NCBI GenBank assembly: GCA_900128585.1
Contig: LT642186.1
Coordinates: 1 to 38,965, forward strand
DNA from: Stramenopiles sp. TOSAG23-3
Lineage: Eukaryota
DNA length: 38,965 nucleotides
Direction of reading: 5' to 3'
Made by a program: the position numbers and the translations under genes. The notes below the pieces were generated by a model. That model ran no database searches and had not been told where the DNA came from. It was given only the letters and a program-made list of their open reading frames with translations. The first letter of the stretch is position 1; each line of letters begins with the position of its first letter. Shown here in pieces: positions 16,117 to 38,160 of this stretch.

Positions 16117-18762
16117 ATGCATAAGCAGCTAGAAACCCATTTTCACGATGCTGCAGAAGCATTAAAACTCGCATTTGACGCCCATTCTGCTCAGGAGACA
16201 CCTTCGGCAGAACTTTATGGGCAAATAAACGAATATGCTGGAAAATATTTCCGATCGTTTGATGAAGATGTATGGGAAAAGGTTTCTGCGGTGACGAATC
16301 TTTATGAATTCTCACCTTACGCCCCGATTAATTTTACGGCACCCAACACTGCATCCAAAGTCGATGGAGTGGGGCGTGACTACTTCTTTGTTGTCGACGG
16401 TACCGTTGAAGCTGTCGATAGCAAGCAAACAAGCCTTGGCATAGTTAAAGCCAATGAAGATAGCGAGAGGTTGTACTTTGACGCAGAAATATTTCAAGAC
16501 TCGTCTGGTGAGCCTATGCATCTCCTTGCAGGCCGCTGCGGCGCAGTACTTCTCCGCCTTGCCTTCAGCGATGTAGCAAAATTGCGACCACGGAACGTGG
16601 GTAGTACGTACGATGAGCCCCGTGTCGGGTCGGCGGAACTATCCCGGCGCATACAACTTTTACGAACATGTCCATTGTTCTCGCAGTGGAAAAACAAAAA
16701 GTTGGGGAAAATGTCAATGTCCCTGCGAAAGGTTGTTTTGAACCCGTTTCAAAAGCTTGGTAGTGAAGGAGATCGTTTCAAGGAATGCTTCATAGTTGCG
16801 CAAGGTGAAATTCGATTAAGGGGCGAAAGGAAGGATGCACAGAAAGGCACCGAGGAATTTTACAAATGCAAAAGTGCACACCCATCGACGACTTTAGCAG
16901 TTTTAGGCAGGGGGCATTTAGGAGGTGTGGTTGAGTTGGTCGATGCCCACAAAAATGGTTGCGCAGCGCACCGTTGTTCTTTTGCAGGGGGGCACACAGG
17001 CGCGACCATTTACACAATTTCTCTATATTTTGCGGACATTTTCTTCCTCTCCGCGCCTAGGCAATGGAACATACTTGTCGCGTTGCGACGGCGGCGGCTA
17101 CTTTGGGAAAATATGAGGTTTGATATGCAACAAAACCACTCAGGGGTAAACATACGGCTCACCGACTCGTCCATGATGGTCAATTTTGGCTACGTGTTAA
17201 ACTTGTCGGTAGTTGCCTTCCTCAAAGAAGGCAATAAAGTCATTGACAAGTGTGGTTTTGGCGAGACAGTGTTTGGTGAAGAAGAGAAAGTACTCTCGGA
17301 GTACCAGTTAACGCTACATAGTGCAAGAGCTCTCCGCCGAACTGGTGAAGCATTAATTCGAAATCATGAACACCTTTCCGCTATCTCATCGTTTTCACTT
17401 GCTTCCAAAATATTCCGATCAACGCTTGACCTAATTCCCCATAATATAGGGGACGATCGTAGACGATTGGCGGCGCAGAATGCAACTAGACTCGCAAACA
17501 TGTCCGAATCTTTCGCAAACTTGGCTACATTTTGTATCCAGCAAAAGCACGCAATGGAGACAATCCACGCATGCAAACTTCAATTTTCTCGCAAGAATTA
17601 CAATGCAGCAACCAAGAATTTCGTAAAAGCCCATGATGTCTGGAAAGAGTTTTTGAAGCTTTATGAAGAAGATAATTCCCAGTATGTAGTTCTGAACAAA
17701 GAGCACAAACGGGTCAACGGATTGGTAACCATTCTTCTCTCGGAAATGTCGGCGCTAACGAAAAGAGCGCATGTAGTCAGGCAGAAAACCTCGACCCAAA
17801 GTGTGCAAAAATTACAGAAGCAGCAGCTGAAAGACTCGAACCGTCTGGCGTCTACTCAGCCGCTTGTTCGTAAGTGCCAATTTCCAGTCTCGCCACCCCC
17901 ATCTGCGATATCACCAGAGACCCAAAACACCCAGTTGTTAAAGACAATGAAACGATATGGTGTGCGAAAAGACGGGCATGTACCTGCACGGCCTCGAGAG
18001 AATCGAAGCCCACCCCTTCGGCAGGACTCTCCTAGATTATTACGTCAAAAGCGAATCATGACCTACAACGATATGACTGATAGCAGTGCTGACCACAATC
18101 ATCCAGATGCCGTGCATCACATCACGACACCAAAAACCACCAGAAAAACTAGCAAATCAAAAACAAAGTCCATGATATCCATACTTCAGCCTAAAGTTGG
18201 TCTACAAAACAAATACAGGCGTGCCACTGGGGGGGGCGGGGGCCCTGGTATAAAGCATAAAACGGAGATGAACATTTTGCTTATTGAACCGAGTGAGCAA
18301 ATGTCAAAACAAGCATGCGCACTGTTTCCAAACCAAGGGAAAAGATACGGCTACATCTGTAACGTTGAAGTTGCATTGAATGGAATAGCCGCTTTAAATA
18401 AGCTGTATCCTGTAAAACATGCCCCTAAAAATGATGAGAACACCCCCGAGTCCGAGCTACTTCCTGCGAGAATAGAGAAAAGGTACAATGTTGTGATAGT
18501 GTCGGCAAGCATTATGGATGTGTCGTGGAGAAGTATAGTTGAAAAGGTCAGACGCAGAGGGAATGCGCGCTTCATATATGTGACTGGTGAGTTTCAAAAC
18601 GATTACCATAGTGCTGCAATGGCAAAAGATGTCATGCGGTACGGTGGAAATGGGATATACCCCCGACCGTATAACAAAACTGTTGTTTCGAACATACTCA
18701 TGAACGTCGAAAAGTACAGTCGAGGTCCAGGTACTTCTTGCAATAAGAGGAAGAAAAAGTGA
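16117..18762 (+). CDS. Protein with cyclic-nucleotide-binding-like domain(s), TPR-like helices and a C-terminal pseudo-receiver (REC) domain
   Basis: 'LLRTCPLFSQW...EGDRFKECFIVAQGEIRL...LAVLGRG' is CNB-like, with a degenerate first CNB (FFVVDGTVEA). C-terminal 'MNILLIEPS...VEVALNGIAAL...YNVVIVS...FIYVTG...GGNGIYPRPY' is REC-like. Confidence 0.8.
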   Translation: MHKQLETHFHDAAEALKLAFDAHSAQETPSAELYGQINEYAGKYFRSFDEDVWEKVSAVTNLYEFSPYAPINFTAPNTASKVDGVGRDYFFVVDGTVEAVDSKQTSLGIVKANEDSERLYFDAEIFQDSSGEPMHLLAGRCGAVLLRLAFSDVAKLRPRNVGSTYDEPRVGSAELSRRIQLLRTCPLFSQWKNKKLGKMSMSLRKVVLNPFQKLGSEGDRFKECFIVAQGEIRLRGERKDAQKGTEEFYKCKSAHPSTTLAVLGRGHLGGVVELVDAHKNGCAAHRCSFAGGHTGATIYTISLYFADIFFLSAPRQWNILVALRRRRLLWENMRFDMQQNHSGVNIRLTDSSMMVNFGYVLNLSVVAFLKEGNKVIDKCGFGETVFGEEEKVLSEYQLTLHSARALRRTGEALIRNHEHLSAISSFSLASKIFRSTLDLIPHNIGDDRRRLAAQNATRLANMSESFANLATFCIQQKHAMETIHACKLQFSRKNYNAATKNFVKAHDVWKEFLKLYEEDNSQYVVLNKEHKRVNGLVTILLSEMSALTKRAHVVRQKTSTQSVQKLQKQQLKDSNRLASTQPLVRKCQFPVSPPPSAISPETQNTQLLKTMKRYGVRKDGHVPARPRENRSPPLRQDSPRLLRQKRIMTYNDMTDSSADHNHPDAVHHITTPKTTRKTSKSKTKSMISILQPKVGLQNKYRRATGGGGGPGIKHKTEMNILLIEPSEQMSKQACALFPNQGKRYGYICNVEVALNGIAALNKLYPVKHAPKNDENTPESELLPARIEKRYNVVIVSASIMDVSWRSIVEKVRRRGNARFIYVTGEFQNDYHSAAMAKDVMRYGGNGIYPRPYNKTVVSNILMNVEKYSRGPGTSCNKRKKK

Positions 18763-18958: not shown

Positions 18959-21652
18959 TCAGTAACCGCCCATCCCCGCATCGAAAATTACACCCATGGG
19001 CATCCAAATATTTTTACACTCTGTTGAGTTGTATAAGAATTCGACGCCTTGGCCCTGTTCGTCGACCATCCAGTCTCGTTTGCAACCGTAATTTACCCAA
19101 GAGCGCTTCATGTTGCCTGCTGAAGCATGTTCAACGAAGCGACTGCCCTCTGCGTCACCGAAATACCACATGGCTTCAATGTTTTGGTGCTCAACTAAGT
19201 ATTTTGTCAGGTGGTTGCGGTTGCCAGTAATTATGTTTACAACCCCAGCAGGGACATCCGAAGTTTCAAATACCTGGTACAGATCCGTTGCACTCAATGG
19301 GTAGGCTTCGCTTGGAACAATGATAATTGTGTTGCCGCGTACTACAGCTGGCGCAAACAACGATACAAAACCGAGCAACGGGTACTCGTCCGGGCATGCG
19401 ATGCCAATGGTGCCTACAGGTTCGTTGATCTTCACTGTTGCGCCGTAAAAGGATGTCTCCTGGACTTCCCCGCCGTACTTGTCGGCGTACGCCGCCCAGT
19501 AGAACAATCGGTTGATAGAGGCTGAGACTTCCGCGTTTGCTGACTCGATAGTTCTGCCGGTCTGGGCTGCAATTCGCCCTGCAATTTCATCGAAGCGCAG
19601 CTCCAAATTTTCTGCAATGTAATAGACGATCTGGGCGCGATTATGGGCCGCACGTTTACCCCATCCTGGAGCCGCTTTGTACGCGCACTCTACAGCGTTG
19701 CGAATGTCTTTTCTGTTTCCTTCCGACACTTGCCCAAGCAATGTCCCCGAACCTTCCGCAAGGACTGGGCGGCAGTAAGTTGCGTCCGGCCGCTTTTGTT
19801 TGCCCCCATAGAACATTTTCAACGTTCTGTCAATGGGAGGCATGTGAGTGACAGCTGTGTTGGTCGTCCCGCCTGGAGTCCCCGGCGCTGGGCCGGGAAG
19901 CATCGTTGGTAAAGTTGGTGCTACGGGTGTCATTGTGCCGAATCCTTTTACCCCTGGGTCGTTCTCGGGGTACTCGGGCCTCGCACGCTCCATCCATGCT
20001 GGTTTGACGTACTCGTACAGCCCTTCGCGGCCACCGTCGCGGCCAAAGCCAGATTCGCGGAAACCTCCAAAGCCAGATGCAGCGTCGAACATGTTGTGTC
20101 CATTGATCCAAACAGTTCCAGCTTTGATCCCCAGGGCAACTTCCATGGCCAAGGTCATTTTTTCTGTCCACACGGATGCCCCCAATCCATACCGGGTATT
20201 GTTTGCCAATGCAATGGCTTCTTTTGGCGTCCGAAACGTTTGAACGGCCAACACGGGGCCAAACACTTCCTCCTGTACGATCGTAGACGTCGATTCAACG
20301 TTCAGGACCAACGTTGGGGGGAAGAAAAGCTCGCCCTCTGGGAGGTTGGGGGGGTTTGCGGCGCCATTGCAGGCTTGATAAACTTCGGCCCCTTCGTCCC
20401 GGGCCGTTTGCACATGGTGGGACACATCTTTCCAGTGGGACAACTGGACCAGGGGGCCCATGTCGATGCATTTGTCCAGACTGTGGCCTAATCGCAAAGT
20501 CTTCATTCTTGCCTTTAATTTGCCGACAAGCTTCTTGTAGATGGGCTCCTGGACTAGCAGCCGGGATCCGGCGCTACAGACCTGCCCTTGGTTGAACCAA
20601 ACGGCATTGACAACCCCCTCTACCACAGAGTCTAAATCCGCTGATTCGAACACGCACACCGGCGATTTTCCACCTAGTTCCAGTGAAATTTTCTTTCCAG
20701 TCCCGGCCAAATTGCGGCGGAGTAGCGCGCCGATGCCAGTGCTGCCAGTGAAGGCGACTTTGTCTACGTCGGGATGCTCTGCAAGGCTCGACCCCATTCG
20801 GCCACCGCCTGTGACAACGTTAAATACCCCGGGGGGAAGGCCTGCTTCGGCGCATATTTCGGCGAACAGAAGGGCGGACAGGCGCGTGGGGGTCGCCGGC
20901 TTGAGTACAACGGTGTTGCCCATTGCCAGCGCGGGCGCTACTTTCCATGTGGTGAGCATCAACGGGAAATTCCACGGGACAATCCCACCAATGACACCCA
21001 CAGGTTTCCAGCCCTGCATTTCTTTCGGGGCGAGTTGGGCCCAGCCGGCGTAGTGGTACAACCAACGCGCTACGATAGGCACGTCTGCATCGCGGGTTTC
21101 GCGCACGGTTTTGCCGTTGTCGAGCGCTTCTACGACAGCAATCAGGCGCGCATGCTTTTGCACGTGCCTCGCCAGCGAGTACATATGCCTTGCCCGTGCG
21201 TGCGGTGGCAACGCCGCCCACTTGACCTGGGCTCGTTTGGCGGCCTGGACCGCTACGTCTACGTCTTCGGCCGTTCCTTCCGTGGTGCTGGAGAGGACTT
21301 CCCCCGTAGCGGGCGCCGTAGTCTGGTAGTGGCGGCGTTCGCCGGCGGGCTTGTACCACTCGTTGTTGATAAAGTGGCCAAAGTCACGCCCGTGGCTGTC
21401 AAGCCAAGCGTTTGCAGCTGCTGGGGACTCTGGGGCTGGACCATACTCCAACGTCGAGAAGACGCGGGCAACGGTGCTTGTGGACTGCTTTCCATCGCTT
21501 CCCATAAGTGCGTACTTTGGCTTGTGCGCGCCATTGGACGCGGGGGGTTCGGCAGCGGGTGCGGCCTGCTGCTTCTGCTTCGCCGCAGCCGCCGTTTTTT
21601 GACGCTTCTCACCAGCGGTATTTGAGTTGCTTTTCTTGTTTTTCTTTGCCAT
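18959..21652 (-). CDS. ALDH16-type aldehyde dehydrogenase (full ALDH domain plus second truncated Rossmann-like ALDH domain)
   Basis: EYGPAPES N-terminal motif, PWNFP, FTGSTGIG, ELGGKSP (catalytic Glu), NQGQVCSAG (catalytic Cys), EEVFGP. Second domain 'DRTLKMFYGGKQKRPD...YWAAYADKYGG...PAGVVNIITG' lacks a catalytic subdomain. Confidence 0.93.
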   Translation of the reverse strand: MAKKNKKSNSNTAGEKRQKTAAAAKQKQQAAPAAEPPASNGAHKPKYALMGSDGKQSTSTVARVFSTLEYGPAPESPAAANAWLDSHGRDFGHFINNEWYKPAGERRHYQTTAPATGEVLSSTTEGTAEDVDVAVQAAKRAQVKWAALPPHARARHMYSLARHVQKHARLIAVVEALDNGKTVRETRDADVPIVARWLYHYAGWAQLAPKEMQGWKPVGVIGGIVPWNFPLMLTTWKVAPALAMGNTVVLKPATPTRLSALLFAEICAEAGLPPGVFNVVTGGGRMGSSLAEHPDVDKVAFTGSTGIGALLRRNLAGTGKKISLELGGKSPVCVFESADLDSVVEGVVNAVWFNQGQVCSAGSRLLVQEPIYKKLVGKLKARMKTLRLGHSLDKCIDMGPLVQLSHWKDVSHHVQTARDEGAEVYQACNGAANPPNLPEGELFFPPTLVLNVESTSTIVQEEVFGPVLAVQTFRTPKEAIALANNTRYGLGASVWTEKMTLAMEVALGIKAGTVWINGHNMFDAASGFGGFRESGFGRDGGREGLYEYVKPAWMERARPEYPENDPGVKGFGTMTPVAPTLPTMLPGPAPGTPGGTTNTAVTHMPPIDRTLKMFYGGKQKRPDATYCRPVLAEGSGTLLGQVSEGNRKDIRNAVECAYKAAPGWGKRAAHNRAQIVYYIAENLELRFDEIAGRIAAQTGRTIESANAEVSASINRLFYWAAYADKYGGEVQETSFYGATVKINEPVGTIGIACPDEYPLLGFVSLFAPAVVRGNTIIIVPSEAYPLSATDLYQVFETSDVPAGVVNIITGNRNHLTKYLVEHQNIEAMWYFGDAEGSRFVEHASAGNMKRSWVNYGCKRDWMVDEQGQGVEFLYNSTECKNIWMPMGVIFDAGMGGY

Positions 21653-28418: not shown

Positions 28419-29986
28419 GCTGCGTTAAAAATGCACTGGTCTAAAGCATTAACCTGTGCCAGAAGACAGTCCAACGTTTTTCTGTCTCTTTTTTCGAACC
28501 AAGTGTGAAAAGAATCGGGACCTGCATAACTCAATGTGTCAAAAAATTATTAAGAGTGAATTCCATCAATTATCTTTTGTTCTAATGTCTGTAAGGTACC
28601 TCCAAGTCGTTTGTGTCGTACCGATATATATGTCATAATAATATATTATAATTAAACAAACAAGATGAGATATGATAAGAAGAAATAAAATAATAAAAAA
28701 AAGAAGAAGTATAGAAGAAGAAGAAATTCAATAATAATTAATAAAATCGATCGATCGATCACAACACCACAGCAAGAAAAGAAGAACATCTCCTCGCACT
28801 TTTTATAATTTTTTTAATTAAAACTCCTCGACGTTGATTAATTATTTATTGAAAGAACAATTGTATTGTAAATACAGGCAATAATATATATAAGCATACA
28901 TTCAACCCAGATAACGGTTCCTTGTTTCCTTTTCCCTCCTCCCTCGGATATAACCCTTCATTCTAACTCTACTCTTTAAAAGTACATAGCTGTCCTCTTC
29001 CTAAGCTATTTTACACTTACTGTGCGGTTACGAGGACTCTTCCTACAGTATTTAAATGTCTTCTTTTCCTTCATCATGTTGTACCGGCATAATAATATTA
29101 TATAATGGCCCCACCCCTCTCTTCTCTCTTCTTCTTCGTTACCACGGTTCCGGGTTCGATACTTCGGTATTAATTATATAATATTTTCACCACACATGCT
29201 ATTACCTTTTTACTGTTGTATTCCTGAGTTCCCAATTACAGACGATTCTTCTGTATCACATCATGTAATAAATATAATTAAAAAAGAGAAGGAAAGAAAA
29301 CAAAACAATAAATGGCTGTGAGATTACGACAGTTTTCTTATTCTAAAATATAATACAAGTACATAATGTTTCGCTAAAAATATATGGAAAAAACGAAACT
29401 CTAAAAAAAAAGCTCGAATATTATATGTATATAGGTAAGAATATTATCTTAGTATACTATTTTACATATTTAAACCACATATTTCTGTTCTTAATAAGAA
29501 TTCGATGAGATCGAATGGACTGACCACCGTCCATCTCTCCACAACTTCTCACATATGGTTTGGAAGTCATATTAAATTATGTAATACTATATTAATCTAA
29601 ATTATTTAGACATATTATTTATATTTAAATGCATTTATGTATTTATGTATATTATGAATTTCTTAGTTTTTTCTCTTTTCTCACGTTCGTACCGTTCCTT
29701 CTTCTTTTCTCGTCCTTCTTCTTCTTTCTCTTCTGATTATTTTATTATTTAATAATAAAAGAGAATAAAACGAAAAAATAATAATAATTATTATTAATAA
29801 TATAATAATAATAACAAAAAATTAGTACAAAAGTTGTTACTAGAACTATGTTCGTTCTAGTCGCGTGTACATTTGAAATTGGCTGCAACGATTTGTTTAA
29901 CGGTTTTTCCAAAACGTCTTCTTCGTAAATTTAGGTATTAATCAATACAGACGAGAAAAAAAGTATTGTAATTGCAGGTATTAAAC

Positions 29987-30886
29987 ATGAACGCTATCCG
30001 AGGTTTAGTCGCTAAAATCCCAAAGCCATCTGGTGGTGGCGGAGGACCGAGTGAAGGTACACGAGCCTTGTTCGGCCTTTTAGGTCTCACTGGGTTCGTG
30101 GGGGCGTGCGCTTATGAGTCGTTCTACGATATTCAGCCGGGTACCCGGGCGATTCTTTTCAGTCGCATCACCGGGATCAGGAGTGACATTATCGAACCAG
30201 GAGCTCACTTTCTGCTTCCGTTTATTGAGCGGCCGATAATATTCGACGTGAAGAAGAGACCTCGTAACATACAGTCCTTAACCGGTAGTAACGACTTGCA
30301 AATGGTTACATTGAACGTGCGTGTTCTTACCCGCCCCCGTGTAAGCAAACTGCCAAGCATTTACCAAGAATTAGGGGACGATTACGACGACCGAGTTTTG
30401 CCTTCGATTGTCAACGAAGTGTGCAAGATGGTAGTCGCCCAGTACAACGCAACGCAGCTGCTGACCCAGCGTGCACAGGTGAGCATGCGAATTAAAGACG
30501 AGCTTATTGCGCGTGCGGACAAATTCGATATCATTATGGACGACGTTGCGTTGACAGAGTTGCGATTTAGTAATGAGTTTAGGGCCGCCGTTGAGGCCAA
30601 GCAGGTCGCGCAACAGGATGCGGAGAAAAGCAAGTATTATGTTGTAAAAGCGTTAGAGGAGAAGAAGAGTATTACCATTCGTGCCGAGGGAGAAGCGCGC
30701 AGTGCGGAACTTATCAGTAAATCGATGAAAGACAATCCTGGGTTCATCGAACTTCGTCGTTTGGATACTGCCAAGGAGATTGCCGGGAACATTGCCAGAA
30801 GCCGAAACCAAGTTTACTTGAACGCCGACTCGCTGCTACTCAACTTGCTAGAACGGGTTGACGGAAGTTCTCATCACGCCAAATAA
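29987..30886 (+). CDS. PHB2: Prohibitin-2 (mitochondrial SPFH protein)
   Basis: 'RPRNIQSLTGSNDLQMV', 'YDDRVLPSIVNEV', 'AVEAKQVAQQDAE', 'NPGFIELRRL...VYLNADSLLLNL' (PHB2-type C-terminus). First ATG is at 29987; the track start at 29972 is a TTG. Confidence 0.93.
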   Translation: MNAIRGLVAKIPKPSGGGGGPSEGTRALFGLLGLTGFVGACAYESFYDIQPGTRAILFSRITGIRSDIIEPGAHFLLPFIERPIIFDVKKRPRNIQSLTGSNDLQMVTLNVRVLTRPRVSKLPSIYQELGDDYDDRVLPSIVNEVCKMVVAQYNATQLLTQRAQVSMRIKDELIARADKFDIIMDDVALTELRFSNEFRAAVEAKQVAQQDAEKSKYYVVKALEEKKSITIRAEGEARSAELISKSMKDNPGFIELRRLDTAKEIAGNIARSRNQVYLNADSLLLNLLERVDGSSHHAK

Positions 30887-31164
30887 GTGAACGAGATTCT
30901 AGAGGGATGCCAAGTGCCCCGACGGACTCATTGGCCTATGCTACGATTACGAGAGAAAAATGCGTTTCAATGAGCACAAAAGGTGGTGTGTTGAGTCAAG
31001 CACTTCTTGCGAAAAAGAAGTGCACAGTCTCAAGATTTCCTATAAAACTCTAGAATTAACTTTATCTAATATCTTATCTTGCAAACTAAGAATTCTTACT
31101 CGTATCAAGAATTTTCTTAAGGGTATTTGCATTTTGTTCTTTTTCTCTTTCGCACTTCTTAAAA

Positions 31165-34100
31165 CTACGGGCAATGTTTCCCTGGCCAGATGACGTTCGC
31201 CAGTGTACTTGCAGCTTCCGCGTTGGACACCAGCTGCACGCCCTGCTCCGTGATCATTTTTCCATGCTTGTCCACAAACACGAGTTTCGGTAAACCCTGT
31301 ACATTGTACTTCTCTCCCAGGCGTTCCCTTGCGTCTACCTCATTATATGGAACTGCCGCCCAAGGCATCTCTTCATAGTATGTCTTGAATTTCCCGGCAG
31401 TGTGGCAGTTTGACACGAAAACTATTTGTAGGCCGTGGCCGGCTTTCTTCAACTCGGAGTACGCTTCGATTAGTTTTGGGGTAAATTTACGGCAGGGGGG
31501 GCACCAATTTGCAGAAAAGTATATGCCAACAACATCGCTTTTGCCGAGAACTTCGCTGGTTGGCTTTTCCGCCATGCTTGCCCCTTCCAACAATGTACTG
31601 CCAAAGCCTTTCGAGGCATCCGTACCAGGGGGCAAACTGCCGGGCAACGGTTTCTTTTTCTTTCTTCTGCGATTCAACAGGGTCAACTCCTTTCCGGCAT
31701 TTTTCATACCAGGCTCATTCCCAACAATTTTTTCCAACCCTTGCTGTTTTATTTTACGACGGATTCGTTTCATCTCGTCGTGCATTGATTCATCCATCAA
31801 AGGCAATATGGCTTGCTTTAAATTGCCGTACATGCCGCCGATTAAACTTTCCTGCTGCGCCAACATTTTCTTAACTCGCTGCCGCTCTTTGGGGGCTTCA
31901 AAACAAGCGGGGCAGTTCTCGTTGATTACTGGAAGCTTTGCTTCATAGGCGAACTTCTTTAGTTGAGACTCTCGGGTGTAAGCAAATGGTCGAATAACTC
32001 TGATGTCTCCTGCGCCTATGGTGTAATTCGCTTTCATTGTGCGAAGCTGCCCATTGTGAAACGCTGACATGACGAAGCTTTCTGCAAGGTCGTCCAAATG
32101 CTGGGCCAGGACGAGGACATTGTAACCTTCCTTGCGGCAACACGAATACAAAGCCCCACGTTTCATCCTGGAGCAATAGGCACAAATAGATGTTCCCTCC
32201 ATTTCCGTCTTTGCCCTGTCCATAATTTTCTCCGATAGATAAAAATAGGGTATTCCCAGGCTTTTCATGTAAGCAATCAACGGGCTTGGGTCAAACGCAT
32301 CGGTTCCAGGGTCCACAGTCGCAGCAGCAAGCTCGAACTTGATCGGGGACCGTTTTTGTAAGTTGTGCAGGACGTGGAGAAGGGTCAAGGAGTCTTTGCC
32401 CCCCGACAATCCCAACAAAAGTCGATCGCCCGGTTGAACCATTTTCCATTGCGCCATTGCTTGGCCGACGGAGCGGTAAATTTTTTTGGGCGGTTTTGGA
32501 AACAAAGTTGCTCTGTTGTTTTTGGCCGACTGCAAGGCCGCATTTGAGGCTGCCTTGGACAAGTTCGCCGCGCCGGTCGATTCTCTTTTCCCGCTTGCAG
32601 AACGCAGGGGATATTTTTCCTTTTTTTTCTTCTTTCCGTTCGAATACGAGTGGGCTTTGGTCCCGCTTCCCGCGCCCGATTCAGGCTTCCCCCCCACCTC
32701 TTCCCATTTTCTTTTTCTCACCTGGCGGTTTTCGCCCGTGTCCGCCCCACGGCTGTACTGCCGTGGATACAGGCCGCCTGCGACCTCCTCCAAAGAAGTT
32801 AGAGACCCAATTTCTTCGGCCAAGTTCGTTTTGCTTTCAAGGGCATCCGTGGCTTCGGAAGGCAGCACGCACCATCGTAAGCCCGATTCCACCATGTGTG
32901 TTTGGTCTATGCCTAACCCTTCTTTTCCTGCGTTGCTTCGGGCTGCGTCAAACAACCCGTCGGCTTCTTTCTTTGCGCGGCTCATCCACTCCTTTGCGTC
33001 TGGGAGATGACTTCCACCAACAGCAGCATTCACCAAACTGTCGGTATCAAATGCGTGCGAAAGCCATTTTCGCTCGACAAACTTCGTAATTCTCGACCGA
33101 TGTTTCCATTCACCAGTTTTGTGATTGAAGCGATAAAAGGGGAGAAGCTTCCATCCCTTTGTCGCAATATCCCCAATAGCATGGGTGATGTACAAAACTT
33201 CTTCCTCTGCCAAAAAGTATGGAAAGCTCAAACGGCTAAAACCAGGGCGCAAATATTCGTTCTTCTCGATGCACGCAGCCTCAAACCTCTGGGCCGTGCT
33301 GTAATCAATGCTCAGCAATGCTTGCCCGTACGGCCCGGCACACTGGCAACCGCCCCGACTCTGGATTCCATACAGATCATTCAGCAAGGCGCAAACGTAA
33401 TTGTAGTGAAGAAAACGCTTTTCGCCTCCACACTCGATCAAAAACGACAGAATTGGTAGTCGCTGAACCGTAGTGCTTCCTAGAATATGAACTTGCGGAA
33501 ACGTCTCCAGCACTTCAGTGACTAACTTCCAATTCCTTTCTTCGAGCTTATGAATCAACGCCGTTCCTACTTTCTGTTTCAAATGAAACGCCAAACCAGC
33601 CCGGGCGCTCCCTAATATGTTCGGCGTCCCCCCCTCCTCCCGCTCTTCACGGTTTGCCAAGTACCGATGGTCACGGTCCGTTACGAAAAACACCGTCCCG
33701 CCCCCTGGCTGTTCTGGCACGGCGTTGGACAGAAGGCGCTTTTTTACAACCAAAATGCCTGGGGACCCGGGGCCCCCGACCATTTTGTGCGGTGACAAGA
33801 ACACGGCGTCCTTATATACAAATGCCCGTCCTTCACCTGGCACGACGGGATTCATGTCTATCTTCATGTATGGTCCCGCGGTTGCGCAGTCCCAGAAGGC
33901 TAGACCCCCTGCGCGATGCATCATTTCCGTGATCTCGTGGGCGGGCGCAACGATCCCGGTAATGTTTGAGGCCATGGTAAACGAGCCAATCTTTAGCTTT
34001 CTGCCTTTGTATTTTTCTAATTTCAATTTCAAGTCGACGACATCAAACGCACCATCAGCGTTTTCTTTCACATGAATGACGTCCGCATGGGACTCCCGCC

Positions 34101-34641
34101 ACGGCAAAATATTGGAGTGGTGCTCATGGGGGCCCACAAAGACCACGGCACGCTCGCTTTCGGGGGGCGTAGTGCCGTCTTTCTGGGTGGGGGCGTGGTT
34201 CAGCCCCAGGATCGCCACCAATTTGTTGATAGCTCCGGTACATCCGCTCCCAACAAAGAGCACAACGTCCTCTTTCGTGTTGCAATTCAATGACTGGGAT
34301 ATTATTTGTCTTGCCTCGTGGCGAAAGCATGTTGACTGCAGCCCAGTAATCGACGTGGTGGTATGCGTGTTTCCGTACAACGGCATTACTTGGTTCTGAA
34401 GATACTTTTCCACAAAGGAAAGGTTCCGGCCGCTGGCTGTCCAGTCCGCATACAAGATTTGGCGTTTGCCATAAGGCCCCAAAAACGTCGAACCATGCCC
34501 TATGATACTGTCATGAATTCGTCTCACAAACTCTTGTGACTGACTGCTACCTTCGTCCCCGCTTGCCCGTTTAGTCTCCAACCCAGACCCTGTTGGGTCA
34601 ACGCGGCCTCCCAACTCTTCGTAAAAGGAGCGGTGGTACAT
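31165..34641 (-). CDS. Three-domain fusion: class-V PLP cysteine desulfurase-like + TtcA-type tRNA 2-thiocytidine synthase + nucleoredoxin/tryparedoxin-type thioredoxin
   Basis: Desulfurase: YADWTASG, HEHHSN, SPHK (33784-33795), RGGCQCAGPY. TtcA: SGGKDS (32389-32406), CAYC (32173-32184), HLDD, CPAC (31903-31914). Trx: YFSANWCPPC (WCPPC 31492-31506), IVFVS, MPWAAVPY, GLPKL. One uninterrupted 1158-aa ORF. Confidence 0.92.
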   Translation of the reverse strand: MYHRSFYEELGGRVDPTGSGLETKRASGDEGSSQSQEFVRRIHDSIIGHGSTFLGPYGKRQILYADWTASGRNLSFVEKYLQNQVMPLYGNTHTTTSITGLQSTCFRHEARQIISQSLNCNTKEDVVLFVGSGCTGAINKLVAILGLNHAPTQKDGTTPPESERAVVFVGPHEHHSNILPWRESHADVIHVKENADGAFDVVDLKLKLEKYKGRKLKIGSFTMASNITGIVAPAHEITEMMHRAGGLAFWDCATAGPYMKIDMNPVVPGEGRAFVYKDAVFLSPHKMVGGPGSPGILVVKKRLLSNAVPEQPGGGTVFFVTDRDHRYLANREEREEGGTPNILGSARAGLAFHLKQKVGTALIHKLEERNWKLVTEVLETFPQVHILGSTTVQRLPILSFLIECGGEKRFLHYNYVCALLNDLYGIQSRGGCQCAGPYGQALLSIDYSTAQRFEAACIEKNEYLRPGFSRLSFPYFLAEEEVLYITHAIGDIATKGWKLLPFYRFNHKTGEWKHRSRITKFVERKWLSHAFDTDSLVNAAVGGSHLPDAKEWMSRAKKEADGLFDAARSNAGKEGLGIDQTHMVESGLRWCVLPSEATDALESKTNLAEEIGSLTSLEEVAGGLYPRQYSRGADTGENRQVRKRKWEEVGGKPESGAGSGTKAHSYSNGKKKKKEKYPLRSASGKRESTGAANLSKAASNAALQSAKNNRATLFPKPPKKIYRSVGQAMAQWKMVQPGDRLLLGLSGGKDSLTLLHVLHNLQKRSPIKFELAAATVDPGTDAFDPSPLIAYMKSLGIPYFYLSEKIMDRAKTEMEGTSICAYCSRMKRGALYSCCRKEGYNVLVLAQHLDDLAESFVMSAFHNGQLRTMKANYTIGAGDIRVIRPFAYTRESQLKKFAYEAKLPVINENCPACFEAPKERQRVKKMLAQQESLIGGMYGNLKQAILPLMDESMHDEMKRIRRKIKQQGLEKIVGNEPGMKNAGKELTLLNRRRKKKKPLPGSLPPGTDASKGFGSTLLEGASMAEKPTSEVLGKSDVVGIYFSANWCPPCRKFTPKLIEAYSELKKAGHGLQIVFVSNCHTAGKFKTYYEEMPWAAVPYNEVDARERLGEKYNVQGLPKLVFVDKHGKMITEQGVQLVSNAEAASTLANVIWPGKHCP

Positions 34642-35370: not shown

Positions 35371-38160
35371 TCACGCTTCCCAGGAGTCTCGTCGGGCCAG
35401 TGGCCTGCCTTTTCTTCTCTTATCCGGAAAGTTGCCATGTGCGGGAGTTTTCCGTGCCCTATTAGTTTTTATTTTCGCCTCGATTGGCTGCATTTCACTC
35501 GGGGTAAACAGCAACTGATTCCCTCTCACGTCAATCGTGAGCGTGGTACCGTTACAAGCTGATCCTGATAAAATCATTTCGCTGATGGGCGTAATCAACG
35601 CGTGCTCGATGAAACGCTGGAGTGGTCGCGCACCCAGTTCAGGATCGTACGCTTCTTTCACGATAAAGTCCAAGACTGGCGGTTTCACGTCCAACAATAT
35701 ACCCGATGAAGCAATTCTTTTGGCAATAGCGCTAATGTGGATGTTGCATATCGTCTTGAGCTGTTCGGTTTTCAACGGTTTAAAGATACAAATGTCGCTC
35801 AAGCGGTTTAGAAACTCAGGTCGAAAATGCTTCTGCACTTCTTCCATTGCCCTTTCTTCTCCCTGCGATAAACTGATCTTTTCCCCCGAAGAAGATACTT
35901 TTCTCCGTTTTGAGGTGCTGGCTTGTTCTTGAAGCAAATGCCGTGCTCCAATGTTCGATGTCAAGATGACCACTGTGTTGCAAAAGTCTACAGTACGCCC
36001 CAATGAATCTGTCAAACGACCGTCGTCAAGCACTTGCAGCAACACGTTCAATACGTCAGGGTGTGCTTTTTCCACCTCATCAAAAAGTATGACACTGTAA
36101 GGTCTCCTTCGAACGGCTTCCGTCAGTTGACCGCCCGCATCGTGGCCAACATAGCCCGGTGGCGCGCCAATCAAACGGGAAATGCTATGCTTCTCCATGT
36201 ATTCGGACATGTCGATTCTCACCATGTGCTTTTCGCTGTCAAATAATTCTCCGGCCAACGCTTTTGCCAATTCGGTCTTTCCAACTCCTGTGGGACCAAG
36301 AAACATAAATGAACCAGTCGGTTGGTTGGGTCGTGCCAATCCAGCACGGGATCGAAGCACTGCAGCTGCGACGCTCTTTACTGCCGGTTGGCCAACGACC
36401 CGCCTGCTCAGTCGTTCTCCCAACTTTAAAAGCCTGTCTTTCTGGGATTGGTTTAGTTTGGACACGGGAATAGATGTCCAGCGGCTGACTACTTCAGCAA
36501 TTTGATCTTCGTCCACACATTCTGTCAACAAAGACTTGCTGCCTTCGGCGTCGCCCAGGGCGCGGGCTGCTTCTCTTTCTTGATCAATTTCCTGAGACAA
36601 AGCTTTCAGCCTGCTCTCGGTGTCTGGAATGGCATAGTACTGCAAATCACTTGCAGTGGCGATGTCACCGTTCCGCTTGGCATCAGAAGCTTTCTTTCGC
36701 AGCCTGTCGAGTTTTTCTTTCAGTCGCTTTATCGCATCGACTCTCCCCCTCTCTTGCTCCCATTTTGCTTTCAGTGGAAGCAAAGATTCCTGGACGTGTG
36801 CTAACTGACGCTTCACCTCCTCCTTTCGCTTCTGGCTTGCATTGTCTTTTTCGCGCTTCAGAGCTGCCAGTTCAATTTCCAACTGAAGCTTGGATCTCTC
36901 CAGCTTGTCGATTTCTTCTGGGCGGCTGTCCAGCTGGACACGGACGCTTGCACAAGCTTCATCGACGAGGTCGATCGCCTTGTCTGGTAAAAAACGCTGT
37001 AAAATATAACGGCTGGACAATTTCGCAGCGGAGACGAGCGCGGCATCCGTAATACGCACACCATGGTGGGTTTCGTAGCGTTCTTTTAAGCCTCGAAGAA
37101 TAGACACAGTTGACGGTATGCTGGGCTCCCCAACAAATACTTGTTGGAATCGTCGTTCAAACGCTGCGTCTTTCTCCACGTGCTGTCGGTACTCGTCTAA
37201 CGTAGTAGCCCCAATGCAGCGCAGTTTTCCACGCGCAAGCAACGGTTTCAGCAGGTTCGCAGCGTCCATTGCCCCGTTCGACTTTCCAGCGCCCATCAAC
37301 AAGTGCATTTCGTCGATGAATAGAATAACGTCTTTGCCGGACGAACCTTGCTCTTTGCCAACGACTTCCTGCAGTACTGACTTCAGCCGCTCTTCAAACT
37401 CTCCCTGGTACTTTGCGCCCGCCACTAGCGCACCCATGTCCAAAGACCAAAGCTCGCAGTGCAAGTTTTGAGGAATATCGTTGGCAACGATGCGCTGAGC
37501 GAGTCCTTCTACGATCGCAGTTTTTCCTACTCCTGGCTGCCCAATGAGTACAGGGTTATTCTTCGTGCGACGTGCAAGAATTTGAATCACTCTTCTGATC
37601 TCCTCGTCCCTGCCAATAACTGGATCTAACTCGCCCTGGGCTGCTCTTTCGCATAAGTTGATGCCATACTTTGACAATGCTTCAAAGTGCTGGTCCCCTG
37701 TCCTGGAGTTGACCGACTTTCCTTTGCATAACGTTTGAATGGCATCTCGCAGCGCGAGCTTTTGAATCCCATTTTTTTTCAAGGCCTTCGAAAGTGCTGG
37801 TGTTTCGGACAATGCAAGTAGTAAGTGGTGCTCTCCTAGGTACGAGTCTCCTGATTTGCTCTTCAACTTGGCTGCTTTCTGCAAAACTTCTCGGAAGCTT
37901 CCGGATGGGGACGGGTCCGTCGGTGCCGGGCTTTGTCTTGGGTACGACATCAGAACCTGCCGAAGGGTTTTTGTTACTGAAGTGGCCGAGACGGTCATCT
38001 TTTCAAGTATGTTAAACCCGAGCGACCCTGGCTCTGAAAACATTACCATTGCTAGGTGCTCAGGAAAGTATTGTGCATGGCTAAACTCACGGGCCAAATT
38101 TGGTACGTGGGTTCCTAAGATTTCAAGCGTCCTCTCTGTCATTTTGTTTGGGTCGCTCAT
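35371..38160 (-). CDS. HSP104: ClpB/Hsp104 (Hsp100) disaggregase, cytosolic type
   Basis: Clp N-domain; NBD1 GQPGVGKT and ILFIDEMH; coiled-coil M-domain; NBD2 [46 protein letters not shown]. No obvious transit peptide. Confidence 0.96.

Follow-up and report, generated by a model that had tools for sequence, protein, structure and literature searches.

Can one polypeptide take sulfur from cysteine, bring it to the level of sulfide and insert it into RNA? The question is raised by a gene on a 38,965-nucleotide stretch of DNA from the eukaryote Stramenopiles sp. TOSAG23-3 (GenBank assembly GCA_900128585.1, contig LT642186.1; the whole stretch is called the window here). The product joins a predicted pyridoxal phosphate (PLP)-dependent cysteine desulfurase domain, a TtcA-type PP-loop thiolase domain and a C-terminal thioredoxin (Trx) domain. 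We put the probability that this single chain carries out a whole RNA-thiolation pathway, with the Trx domain as dithiol acceptor or reductant, at about one half. The parts of this reading differ in strength: the desulfurase-TtcA core is likely to thiolate RNA, probably at cytidine 32 (C32) of tRNA, and a role of the Trx domain in sulfur reduction or transfer is slightly favoured. The main argument is comparative; three different dithiol modules occupy the same position in different lineages of the family, which fits such a pathway.

One gene with three domains

The gene is a single open reading frame (ORF) which runs from ATG to stop on the reverse strand in one intron-free exon. Its product, P0001, contains three Pfam families above their gathering scores: Aminotran_5 (residues 64-442, E 1.9e-34), the PP-loop family ATP_bind_3 (residues 741-906, E 3.5e-17) and Thioredoxin_8 (residues 1036-1128, E 5.4e-24). 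An initial annotation, made from the letters of the DNA, had named the same three domains in one ORF; Pfam and NCBIfam bear out all of these assignments. The stretches it gave (34530-33050, 32500-31790 and 31600-31200) correspond to residues ~38-530, ~714-950 and ~1014-1147. The motifs which it considered intact (SPHK, RGGCQCAG, SGGKDS, CAYC, CPAC and WCPPC) are all present, and their coordinates were verified by translation (Table 1).

It is hardly credible that the Trx domain is a separate gene, or that its fusion reflects read-through of two genes or chimeric assembly. The sequence appears to come from run X1, which is small (4 million letters), and the linker before the Trx domain is unconserved, both of which would suit an artefact. 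However, the frame is continuous, and RNA contigs from four metatranscriptome runs of three studies could be placed on the window. Record 2 of run X15 (2302 nucleotides) is colinear with 31089-33390 and covers the 3' end, the Trx and TtcA domains, linker 1 and part of the desulfurase; record 8 of X16 spans 31139-32235; records 16 and 17 of X17 cover 31099-31777 and 31779-32589. The junction between the TtcA and Trx domains, for which the initial annotation had proposed an RNA check, is thus bridged colinearly by contigs from all three studies without a gap or joint (intron). The convergent neighbour gene lies on separate RNA contigs which end at 30946-31082, RNA depth differs ~3- to 7-fold between the ORF and this neighbour in X15-X17, and the upstream intergenic stretch is nearly uncovered; contigs alone are no proof of a single transcript, and RNA libraries may contain DNA. 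Twelve variants were found in the RNA contigs inside the coding sequence; nine are synonymous, including all three in the Trx domain.

Fourteen studies contributed runs which contain the stretch; most of these runs are metagenomes from marine samples or seawater, and six are recorded as RNA. Apart from the possible source, 13 runs of DNA or without a label (X2-X14) contain 0.72-0.92 of its sampled words. An identical protein (P0002) has been called on an independent ENA contig. P0003, which is 64% identical to P0001 over 1154 amino acids, retains all three domains and the WCPPC motif; the same is true of 7/7 other full-length members of its 90% cluster, which contains EukProt entries named 'Stramenopile-MAST_4'. 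Since the colinear RNA contigs, P0002, and P0003 with its cluster agree, a chimeric or two-gene artefact is very unlikely; the window encodes a real three-domain gene, and of this we are nearly certain. Post-translational cleavage in the linkers may occur and is compatible with the sequence.

The best PDB sequence matches of the desulfurase part are SufS enzymes (8d8s, E 7e-23). K286 aligns with the lysine of the sGHKm motif in SufS chains 8d8s and 7e6d, which is the PLP lysine of SufS. C434 aligns with the cysteine of SufS RAGHHCA; the two histidines of this motif are replaced by C432-Q433, with C432 in place of a histidine. K286, C432, C434, H174, D251 and R429 are invariant in 30/30 homologues. 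An AlphaFold2 (AF2) model of residues 1-600, with 30 homologues in the alignment, has a mean predicted local distance difference test score (pLDDT) of 84.5 and a predicted template modelling score (pTM) of 0.85. The matches to this fold listed by Foldseek against the PDB, down to rank 50, are all cysteine desulfurases of the SufS/Nfs2/CsdB type (encapsulin cargo included), with target-normalised template modelling scores of 0.83-0.88. PLP lysine, position of the catalytic cysteine and fold are those of a type II desulfurase; the curated score is not reached (NCBIfam SufS models TIGR01979, 126 against a cut-off of 475, and PRK09295, 70 against 661). Judged by its sequence, the domain is a distinct subfamily apart from curated SufS. 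It carries a C-terminal extension of ~120 residues which is conserved in the family (GWKLLP..TGEWKH..RKWL).

Linker 1, which follows, is poorly conserved in our alignment of homologues (A1), and pLDDT in the full-length AF2 model is below 50 at residues 632-712. Within it lies the motif LRWxxLPSE, where W590 is invariant and L588, P594 and E596 are at least 90% conserved among 30 sequences. In the form LRW[FC]xLPSE(A) the motif is conserved from animals to stramenopiles amid otherwise variable linker sequence; a basic KYPLRS motif is common to the stramenopile homologues. Both are possibly docking or tRNA-binding sites.

The middle domain matches the NCBIfam TtcA model NF007972 (residues 704-965, profile 7-268 of 295) with 200 bits and E 4.9e-59. 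TtcA is by far the best of the competing models (TilS_N 65 bits, TtuA 37 and NcsA 33.5), as the initial annotation had supposed in calling the domain TtcA-like rather than TtuA- or Ncs6-like; the equivalog cut-off of 272 bits is not reached. Identity to E. coli K-12 TtcA is 36% over 211 amino acids (E 2e-44). The PP-loop (SGGxDS pattern, here SGGKDS) and the four cysteines of the two central CxxC motifs (C820/C823 and C910/C913) are invariant in 19/19 sequences of A1, and both CxxC pairs align with those of E. coli TtcA. In the E. coli enzyme a [4Fe-4S] cluster is held by three cysteines, of which C122 and C125 are essential ligands (Bouvier et al. 2014, PMC4081106). The RefSeq translation of E. 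coli ttcA (L001:16014-16949 (-)) places the second CxxC at C210/C213 and a further cysteine at 191. PMC4081106 numbers Cys200, Cys219 and Cys222, an offset of 9 from RefSeq, yet gives C122/C125 without an offset; the pair 219/222 is assumed here to be C210/C213.

P0001 contains no cysteine at residues 592-819 or 914-1046; therefore the flanking zinc (Zn) fingers of TtuA and Ncs6 are absent, as had been noted initially. The Ncs6/Ctu1/TtuA models score 33-37 bits against cut-offs of 450-500. A PDB search with the TtcA domain returned no TtcA structure; the nearest solved structures are TtuA (E 1.6e-7), NcsA and TilS.

The C-terminal domain scores 84.8 bits against PF13905 (Thioredoxin_8; gathering score 27) and covers 2-93 of the 94 profile positions. 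PDB matches extend over the full domain and include 2lus of the 16-kDa thioredoxin class (E 1.2e-21) and tryparedoxin I (E 4e-21); WCPPCR and the region of the cis-Pro loop are common to the P0001 domain and the tryparedoxin chains. Linker 2, which precedes it, shows no conservation between P0001 and P0003, and pLDDT in the full-length AF2 model is below 50 from residue 969. A three-chain complex prediction (desulfurase, TtcA and Trx), in which family alignments were unused, scored 0.00 and is uninformative either way.

C-terminal dithiols in the fused family

The two-domain core is common. Among the best 120 listed whole-protein homologues, 119 carry both PF00266 and PF01171; P0004 carries PF00266 only. 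Sequences from oomycetes, labyrinthulids and brown algae are among them, together with many from metagenomes; other searches extend the range to diatoms, crabs, spiders, a sponge, a mollusc, a hemichordate, the heterolobosean Percolomonas and a dinoflagellate. Aminotran_5 followed by ATP_bind_3 in one chain, with conserved CxC and NCPAC motifs, places P0001 in this eukaryotic fused family. The core is widespread in eukaryotes and already in print: a preprint dated 28 September 2026 mapped 2-thiocytidine at position 32 (s2C32) in Aplysia tRNA-Lys(UUU), called there the first eukaryotic s2C, and describes a 1177-amino-acid CsdA-TtcA fusion, conserved among molluscs and extending to 'birds and insects' (bioRxiv 10.64898/2026.09.27.754811).

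Three surveys were made for C-terminal additions: a search with residues 880-1158 (best 120 listed), an exhaustive search with residues 701-1158 (best 150 listed) and a motif scan of all stored proteins. Four proteins among the best 120 join PP-loop and Trx Pfam families (P0002, P0003, P0125 and P0165). From the best 150, ten with extra or long matched stretches were run through Pfam and one of these has a Trx domain (P0217); the motif scan added P0213, whose Trx domain was confirmed by Pfam. A set of 274 fused homologues has a complete TtcA domain; seven of these have a C-terminal Trx domain and 21 a conserved cysteine (Cys) tail.

The Trx domains belong to two families. Thioredoxin_8 with WCPPC is found in P0001, P0003 and P0125. 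The Trx part of P0125 is 43% identical to that of P0001 (E 2e-31) and its desulfurase is absent; the P0125 gene model has the TtcA domain at its very start and is possibly truncated, and its last ~25 residues contain a hydrophobic, tail-anchor-like stretch LVACAALSAGVASFCLW. The classic Thioredoxin family PF00085 is found in P0165 (WCVPC), in P0217 from the dinoflagellate Biecheleria cincta (WCAPC) and in P0213/P0321 from Triparma strigata and T. verrucosa (WCKPC). Domains of the two kinds share 22% identity over only 37 amino acids around the active site.

Other homologues carry a short Cys tail at the place of the Trx domain of P0001. It occupies the last ~20 residues in 21/274 proteins, or 22 in a larger set (Table 1), and has the form C-x(3-6)-Y-C-x-P-C-Y-E-L-A/C, also C..YC[PAV]PC[YFH]EL[AC]; diatom tails read C-x9-P-C-R-E-L-M-E or C-x9-PC[RY][EQ]LME. 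The named carriers (Pylaiella, Chrysoparadoxa, Paraphysomonas, Skeletonema and a Lepto- diatom) are ochrophytes. Because two unrelated Trx families and a Cys tail stand at the same place, a dithiol partner can be argued to belong to the pathway.

A 96-row maximum-likelihood tree of TtcA domains covers every row with a Trx domain or tail, the named taxa and the nearest relatives, plus E. coli TtcA and 45 of the other rows drawn at random. P0001 and P0003 are a starred pair within a starred clade of seven rows, and the Trx state changes at least four times on the tree. A single clade of all six Trx-bearing rows is rejected (109 log-likelihood units; approximately unbiased test, p-AU 0.00026). 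The three Thioredoxin_8 rows as one clade are not rejected (p-AU 0.127), so the safe count is at least two independent acquisitions of Trx. On these sequences, a C-terminal Trx domain was gained at least twice, from two Trx families.

A scan of one genome per prokaryote species recovered 13 stand-alone TtcA genes of 244-297 amino acids in Thiotrichales-type gammaproteobacteria (Leucothrix, Cocleimonas and Thiotrichaceae metagenome-assembled genomes (MAGs); L002-L011 and L013-L015). Their products have ENCPACFE in common with the eukaryotic domain and reach 53-60% identity to it; E. coli TtcA is far lower (36%). The one such locus which was read (L009:7989-8741 (+)) lies in a housekeeping context. 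No desulfurase or Trx gene was detected by tblastn (E <= 1e-3) within 8 kb of the 13 loci, which gives no operon support. In a 47-row PP-loop tree, E. coli TtcA and the 13 Thiotrichales-type sequences are one starred group beside the eukaryotic domains; this tree holds no TtuA or Ncs6 rows, and its root, E. coli TilS, is unreliable, being attached on a very long branch inside the eukaryotes. The closeness of the Thiotrichales-type and eukaryotic domains suggests gene transfer, in either direction. The same scan met a fused desulfurase-TtcA in frame-changing pieces (L012:7810-11311) on a 133.7-kb contig filed under a Verrucomicrobiota MAG; the contig appears to be eukaryotic, with introns, and to have been mis-binned.

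What is new here is the third module: a Trx domain, added recurrently and from two families, or a Cys tail in its place. Neither a TtcA-thioredoxin fusion nor the two-family recurrence nor the tail was found in the full-text literature, subscription journals and supplements being outside its scope. Three-domain proteins were already present, unremarked, in public records (Triparma).

A possible sulfur relay and its alternatives

In the proposed mechanism, the ORF would yield one cytosolic polypeptide whose most likely product is 2-thiocytidine at tRNA position 32. The SufS-like domain would take sulfur from L-cysteine and hold it as a persulfide on C434. The Trx domain, on a flexible basic linker of ~50 residues, would accept this persulfide with its CPPC dithiol and/or reduce it by two electrons, turning S(0) into sulfide: C1047 would take the sulfur from C434 (or attack it), the arm would move to the TtcA cluster, and C1050 would resolve the persulfide and release sulfide onto the free iron of the cluster. 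Alternatively, C432 may resolve the C434 persulfide; the Trx domain would then re-reduce the resulting C432-C434 disulfide. C820, C823 and C913 would ligate the [4Fe-4S] cluster of the TtcA domain, leaving one iron free to bind the sulfide; the PP-loop would adenylate the target cytidine, and the cluster-bound sulfide would displace AMP. The oxidised Trx domain would be re-reduced by a cellular reductase. For the family, we tentatively suggest that a tethered C-terminal dithiol may have been recruited repeatedly as a swinging arm, which would carry persulfide from a buried desulfurase cysteine to the TtcA cluster and release it as sulfide through its own resolving cysteine.

Conversion of persulfide S(0) to sulfide takes two electrons, and a reductant is stoichiometrically required. 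In type II desulfurases such as SufS and CsdA the catalytic cysteine is poorly accessible; the persulfide is normally handed to a partner thiol such as SufE, SufU or CsdE. E. coli TtcA with cysteine and IscS as sulfur source 'absolutely' needs ATP and dithiothreitol (DTT) in vitro (PMC4081106), and the Trx domain may be the physiological counterpart of DTT in this assay.

Several points weigh against this mechanism. In the E. coli assay DTT might have another purpose, for instance to keep the cluster intact. The NCBIfam scores of the TtcA and SufS domains lie below the curated cut-offs, as given above; therefore functional identity with the bacterial enzymes is not established. No Trx domain or tail is found in 240/274 homologues (truncated gene models may hide some), nor in the other five rows of the clade which holds P0001 and P0003 (P0005, P0128, P0168, P0006 and P0010); since most homologues and the closest relatives lack Trx, the fused dithiol appears dispensable. 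P0001 and P0003 are 52% identical over the C-terminal 279 residues (880-1158) as opposed to 84% in the TtcA domain, so constraint on Trx is weaker than on TtcA. Few alignment rows cover the Trx domain in the full-length AF2 model, so its pLDDT stays below 50 and the model is silent on its docking. For every protein with this architecture, the function is predicted from sequence. The link between the Aplysia gene and s2C32 is correlative, in a preprint and, in its available text, without genetic or enzymatic proof (10.64898/2026.09.27.754811).

Other explanations differ in how much of the pathway they keep. It is unlikely that the Trx domain is protective or regulatory and stands outside sulfur transfer, either holding the cluster-ligand and active-site cysteines in the reduced state, so that Fe-S clusters can be (re)inserted where oxygen is plentiful, or acting as a redox switch, with RNA thiolated by the core. 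The oxygen sensitivity of the TtcA cluster (PMC4081106), the marine and seawater metagenomes of 14 studies in which the window DNA occurs, the 240 homologues which work without a fused Trx domain and its lower conservation relative to the catalytic domains would all suit such a role. However, the added module, whether one of two Trx families or a minimal Cys tail, is always a C-terminal CxxC dithiol behind a long linker, as would be expected of a mobile reactant rather than of a sensor. The stoichiometric need for a reductant in forming sulfide also speaks against it. The DTT requirement in vitro (PMC4081106) points the same way.

Somewhat less probable still is that the eukaryotic clade is a TtcA-like paralogue with a specificity of its own, whose target is not tRNA C32 but a different position or base in tRNA, some other RNA or a small molecule. 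This would agree with the score below the equivalog cut-off, with an identity of only 36% to E. coli TtcA and with the use of the PP-loop/CxxC-C scaffold for other substrates in TtuA, NcsA and LarE (PMC8584467); against it, the closely related Thiotrichales-type stand-alone enzymes group with E. coli TtcA, one of them in a housekeeping context, and s2C32 has been mapped in an animal with the fused gene (10.64898/2026.09.27.754811). We consider it very improbable that the PLP domain has a different class-V activity, for instance that of a selenocysteine lyase or C-S lyase, in which case the chain would supply selenium or have a different substrate. Structure titles of E. coli CsdB/SufS also name selenocysteine lyase, the HH of RxGHHCA has become CQ and the domain stays far under the cut-off of the SufS model; however, the catalytic cysteine, PLP lysine, HHSN and R429 are invariant, the listed Foldseek matches are uniformly of the desulfurase type and the fusion partner inserts sulfur. 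The relay through the fused dithiol remains our preferred reading.

The surroundings of the gene give no functional hint, either from the Band_7 and ClpB/Hsp104-like neighbours (Table 1) or from others. The surrounding ORFs are long, uninterrupted and eukaryote-type (EF-hand proteins, PQ-loop, CobW, aldehyde dehydrogenase, DeoC and IQ/TPR). No tRNA genes were found in the 38,965 nucleotides searched, and a promoter/terminator scan of the window was at chance level; its model is bacterial and irrelevant to a eukaryote. No Pfam family matches the 881-amino-acid ORF at 16117-18759 (+) at E <= 1e-5. At 18962-21652 (-) lies the aldehyde dehydrogenase ORF, which encodes 897 amino acids with two Aldedh stretches, ~350 residues above the usual size.

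Table 1. Features of the three-domain gene, its neighbours and its Cys-tail homologues (positions in the window; residues of P0001)
Feature	Position	Strand	Basis
Whole ORF, 1158 amino acids plus stop	31165..34641	-	uninterrupted frame; colinear RNA contigs without joints
SufS-like (type II) PLP cysteine desulfurase domain with family-specific C-terminal extension, predicted, residues ~40-560	32962..34524	-	Pfam, AF2, Foldseek
K286 in SPHK, predicted PLP (Schiff-base) lysine	33784..33786	-	alignment with SufS chains
C432-Q-C434 active-site loop (RGGCQCAG)	33340..33348	-	alignment with SufS
Linker 1, residues 561-715, mostly low-complexity, basic cluster KKKKKEKYPLRS	32497..32961	-	alignment A1, AF2
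Conserved linker motif LRWCVLPSEA, residues 588-597	32851..32880	-	30-sequence alignment
TtcA-type PP-loop thiolase domain, predicted, residues 716-965	31747..32496	-	NCBIfam TtcA E 4.9e-59; E. coli TtcA alignment
PP-loop SGGKDS, residues 746-751 (predicted ATP binding/adenylation)	32389..32406	-	invariant 19/19
First CxxC, C820/C823 (CAYC), predicted [4Fe-4S] ligands	32173..32184	-	align with E. coli TtcA C122/C125
Second CxxC, C910/C913 (CPAC); C913 predicted third cluster ligand	31903..31914	-	aligns with second E. coli TtcA CxxC
Linker 2, residues 966-1014, Lys/Arg-rich, predicted flexible tether	31600..31746	-	unconserved between P0001 and P0003; AF2
Tryparedoxin/nucleoredoxin-like thioredoxin domain, residues 1015-1150	31192..31599	-	Pfam Thioredoxin_8, PDB alignments
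WCPPC redox motif, residues 1046-1050 (C1047, C1050)	31492..31506	-	translation check; tryparedoxin alignment
Band_7 prohibitin-like gene	29972-30886	+	neighbouring ORF
ClpB/Hsp104-like gene	35371-38160	-	neighbouring ORF
22 Cys-tail homologues, part 1: P0064, P0065, P0070, P0074, P0083, P0093, P0096, P0100, P0117, P0137, P0143			
22 Cys-tail homologues, part 2: P0153, P0155, P0164, P0173-P0175, P0179, P0196, P0197, P0281, P0286			

Known systems and significance

The CsdA(IscS-like)-TtcA protein of Aplysia and other molluscs (LOC101861551, 10.64898/2026.09.27.754811) agrees with P0001 in its two core domains, their order and the long variable linker, and shares the PLP lysine, a Cys-x-Cys in the desulfurase, and SGGKDS and C..CSFC..CPAC in the TtcA part. 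Alignment A1 gives 45% identity between P0001 and the molluscan homologue P0163 from Nucella. A Trx domain is not described in the available text of the preprint, according to which its authors could not name the catalytic cysteine; in P0001, C434 aligns with the catalytic cysteine of SufS.

The bacterial IscS and TtcA pair resembles the window protein in its PP-loop, two CxxC motifs, three-cysteine [4Fe-4S] site, sulfur from a PLP desulfurase and dithiol reductant in vitro. The bacterial proteins are separate and their genes lie far apart, whereas the window encodes one chain; moreover, IscS is a type I desulfurase and the fused domain is SufS-like (type II). To our knowledge, no dedicated thioredoxin is known for the bacterial TtcA pathway. 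SufS and CsdA, with their partners SufE, SufU and CsdE, share with P0001 the fold, the PLP lysine and a catalytic cysteine in the same short loop. In contrast to them, P0001 has GGCQCAG where they have AGHHCA, the extension of ~120 residues and the LRWxxLPSE motif, and its acceptor would be the fused CxxC module in place of SufE or SufU.

Tryparedoxin, nucleoredoxin and the 16-kDa thioredoxins share WCPPCR and align over the full length of the Trx domain (E ~1e-21); here such a domain is the C-terminal part of a predicted tRNA-modification enzyme, with trypanothione, glutathione or thioredoxin reductase as candidate reductants. TtuA, Ncs6 (Ctu1) and NcsA belong to the same superfamily as the TtcA domain, use cluster-dependent chemistry and include the nearest solved structures. 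They differ in having N- and C-terminal Zn fingers and in drawing sulfur from a ubiquitin-like thiocarboxylate, neither of which is present in P0001. In the large subunit of class I ribonucleotide reductase, a mobile C-terminal CxxC shuttles reducing equivalents from thioredoxin to a buried active-site disulfide. The CxPC tails of the ochrophyte proteins resemble this tail as a functional analogy in an unrelated enzyme.

The fusion is less surprising than first held because the core and eukaryotic s2C32 have now been reported. The initial annotation had regarded s2C32 as not established in eukaryotes, which is superseded by the report from Aplysia with its fused CsdA-TtcA gene (10.64898/2026.09.27.754811). 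It had noted two-domain proteins in automated annotations of some eukaryotes; they do exist, and are already in print in the same preprint. The Trx addition, which it had not met elsewhere, is present in Triparma records and in a dinoflagellate transcriptome and is thus not unique to the window. Its suggestion that the Trx domain releases sulfide or resets cysteines gains indirect support from the recurrent C-terminal Trx and CxxC modules and from the DTT requirement of the E. coli enzyme (PMC4081106); the complete 'machine' which it envisaged is still inferred.

A 2017 review lists the mechanism of TtcA as unknown (PMC5372739). Natural fusions are a classic pointer to functional partners, and this one is a concrete, testable clue to the donor or reductant which supplies [4Fe-4S] thiolases (TtcA, TtuA and NcsA/Ctu1) with sulfur at the level of sulfide in vivo. 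As a single chain it is a simple system, and it also asks whether s2C32, reported in one eukaryote, is widespread in protists and invertebrates. If the proposed relay is true, the missing physiological sulfur carrier or reductant of cluster-dependent tRNA thiolases would be identified; the window protein would be the most complete single-chain version, and the pathway might be reconstituted from cysteine, ATP and NADPH/reductase only.

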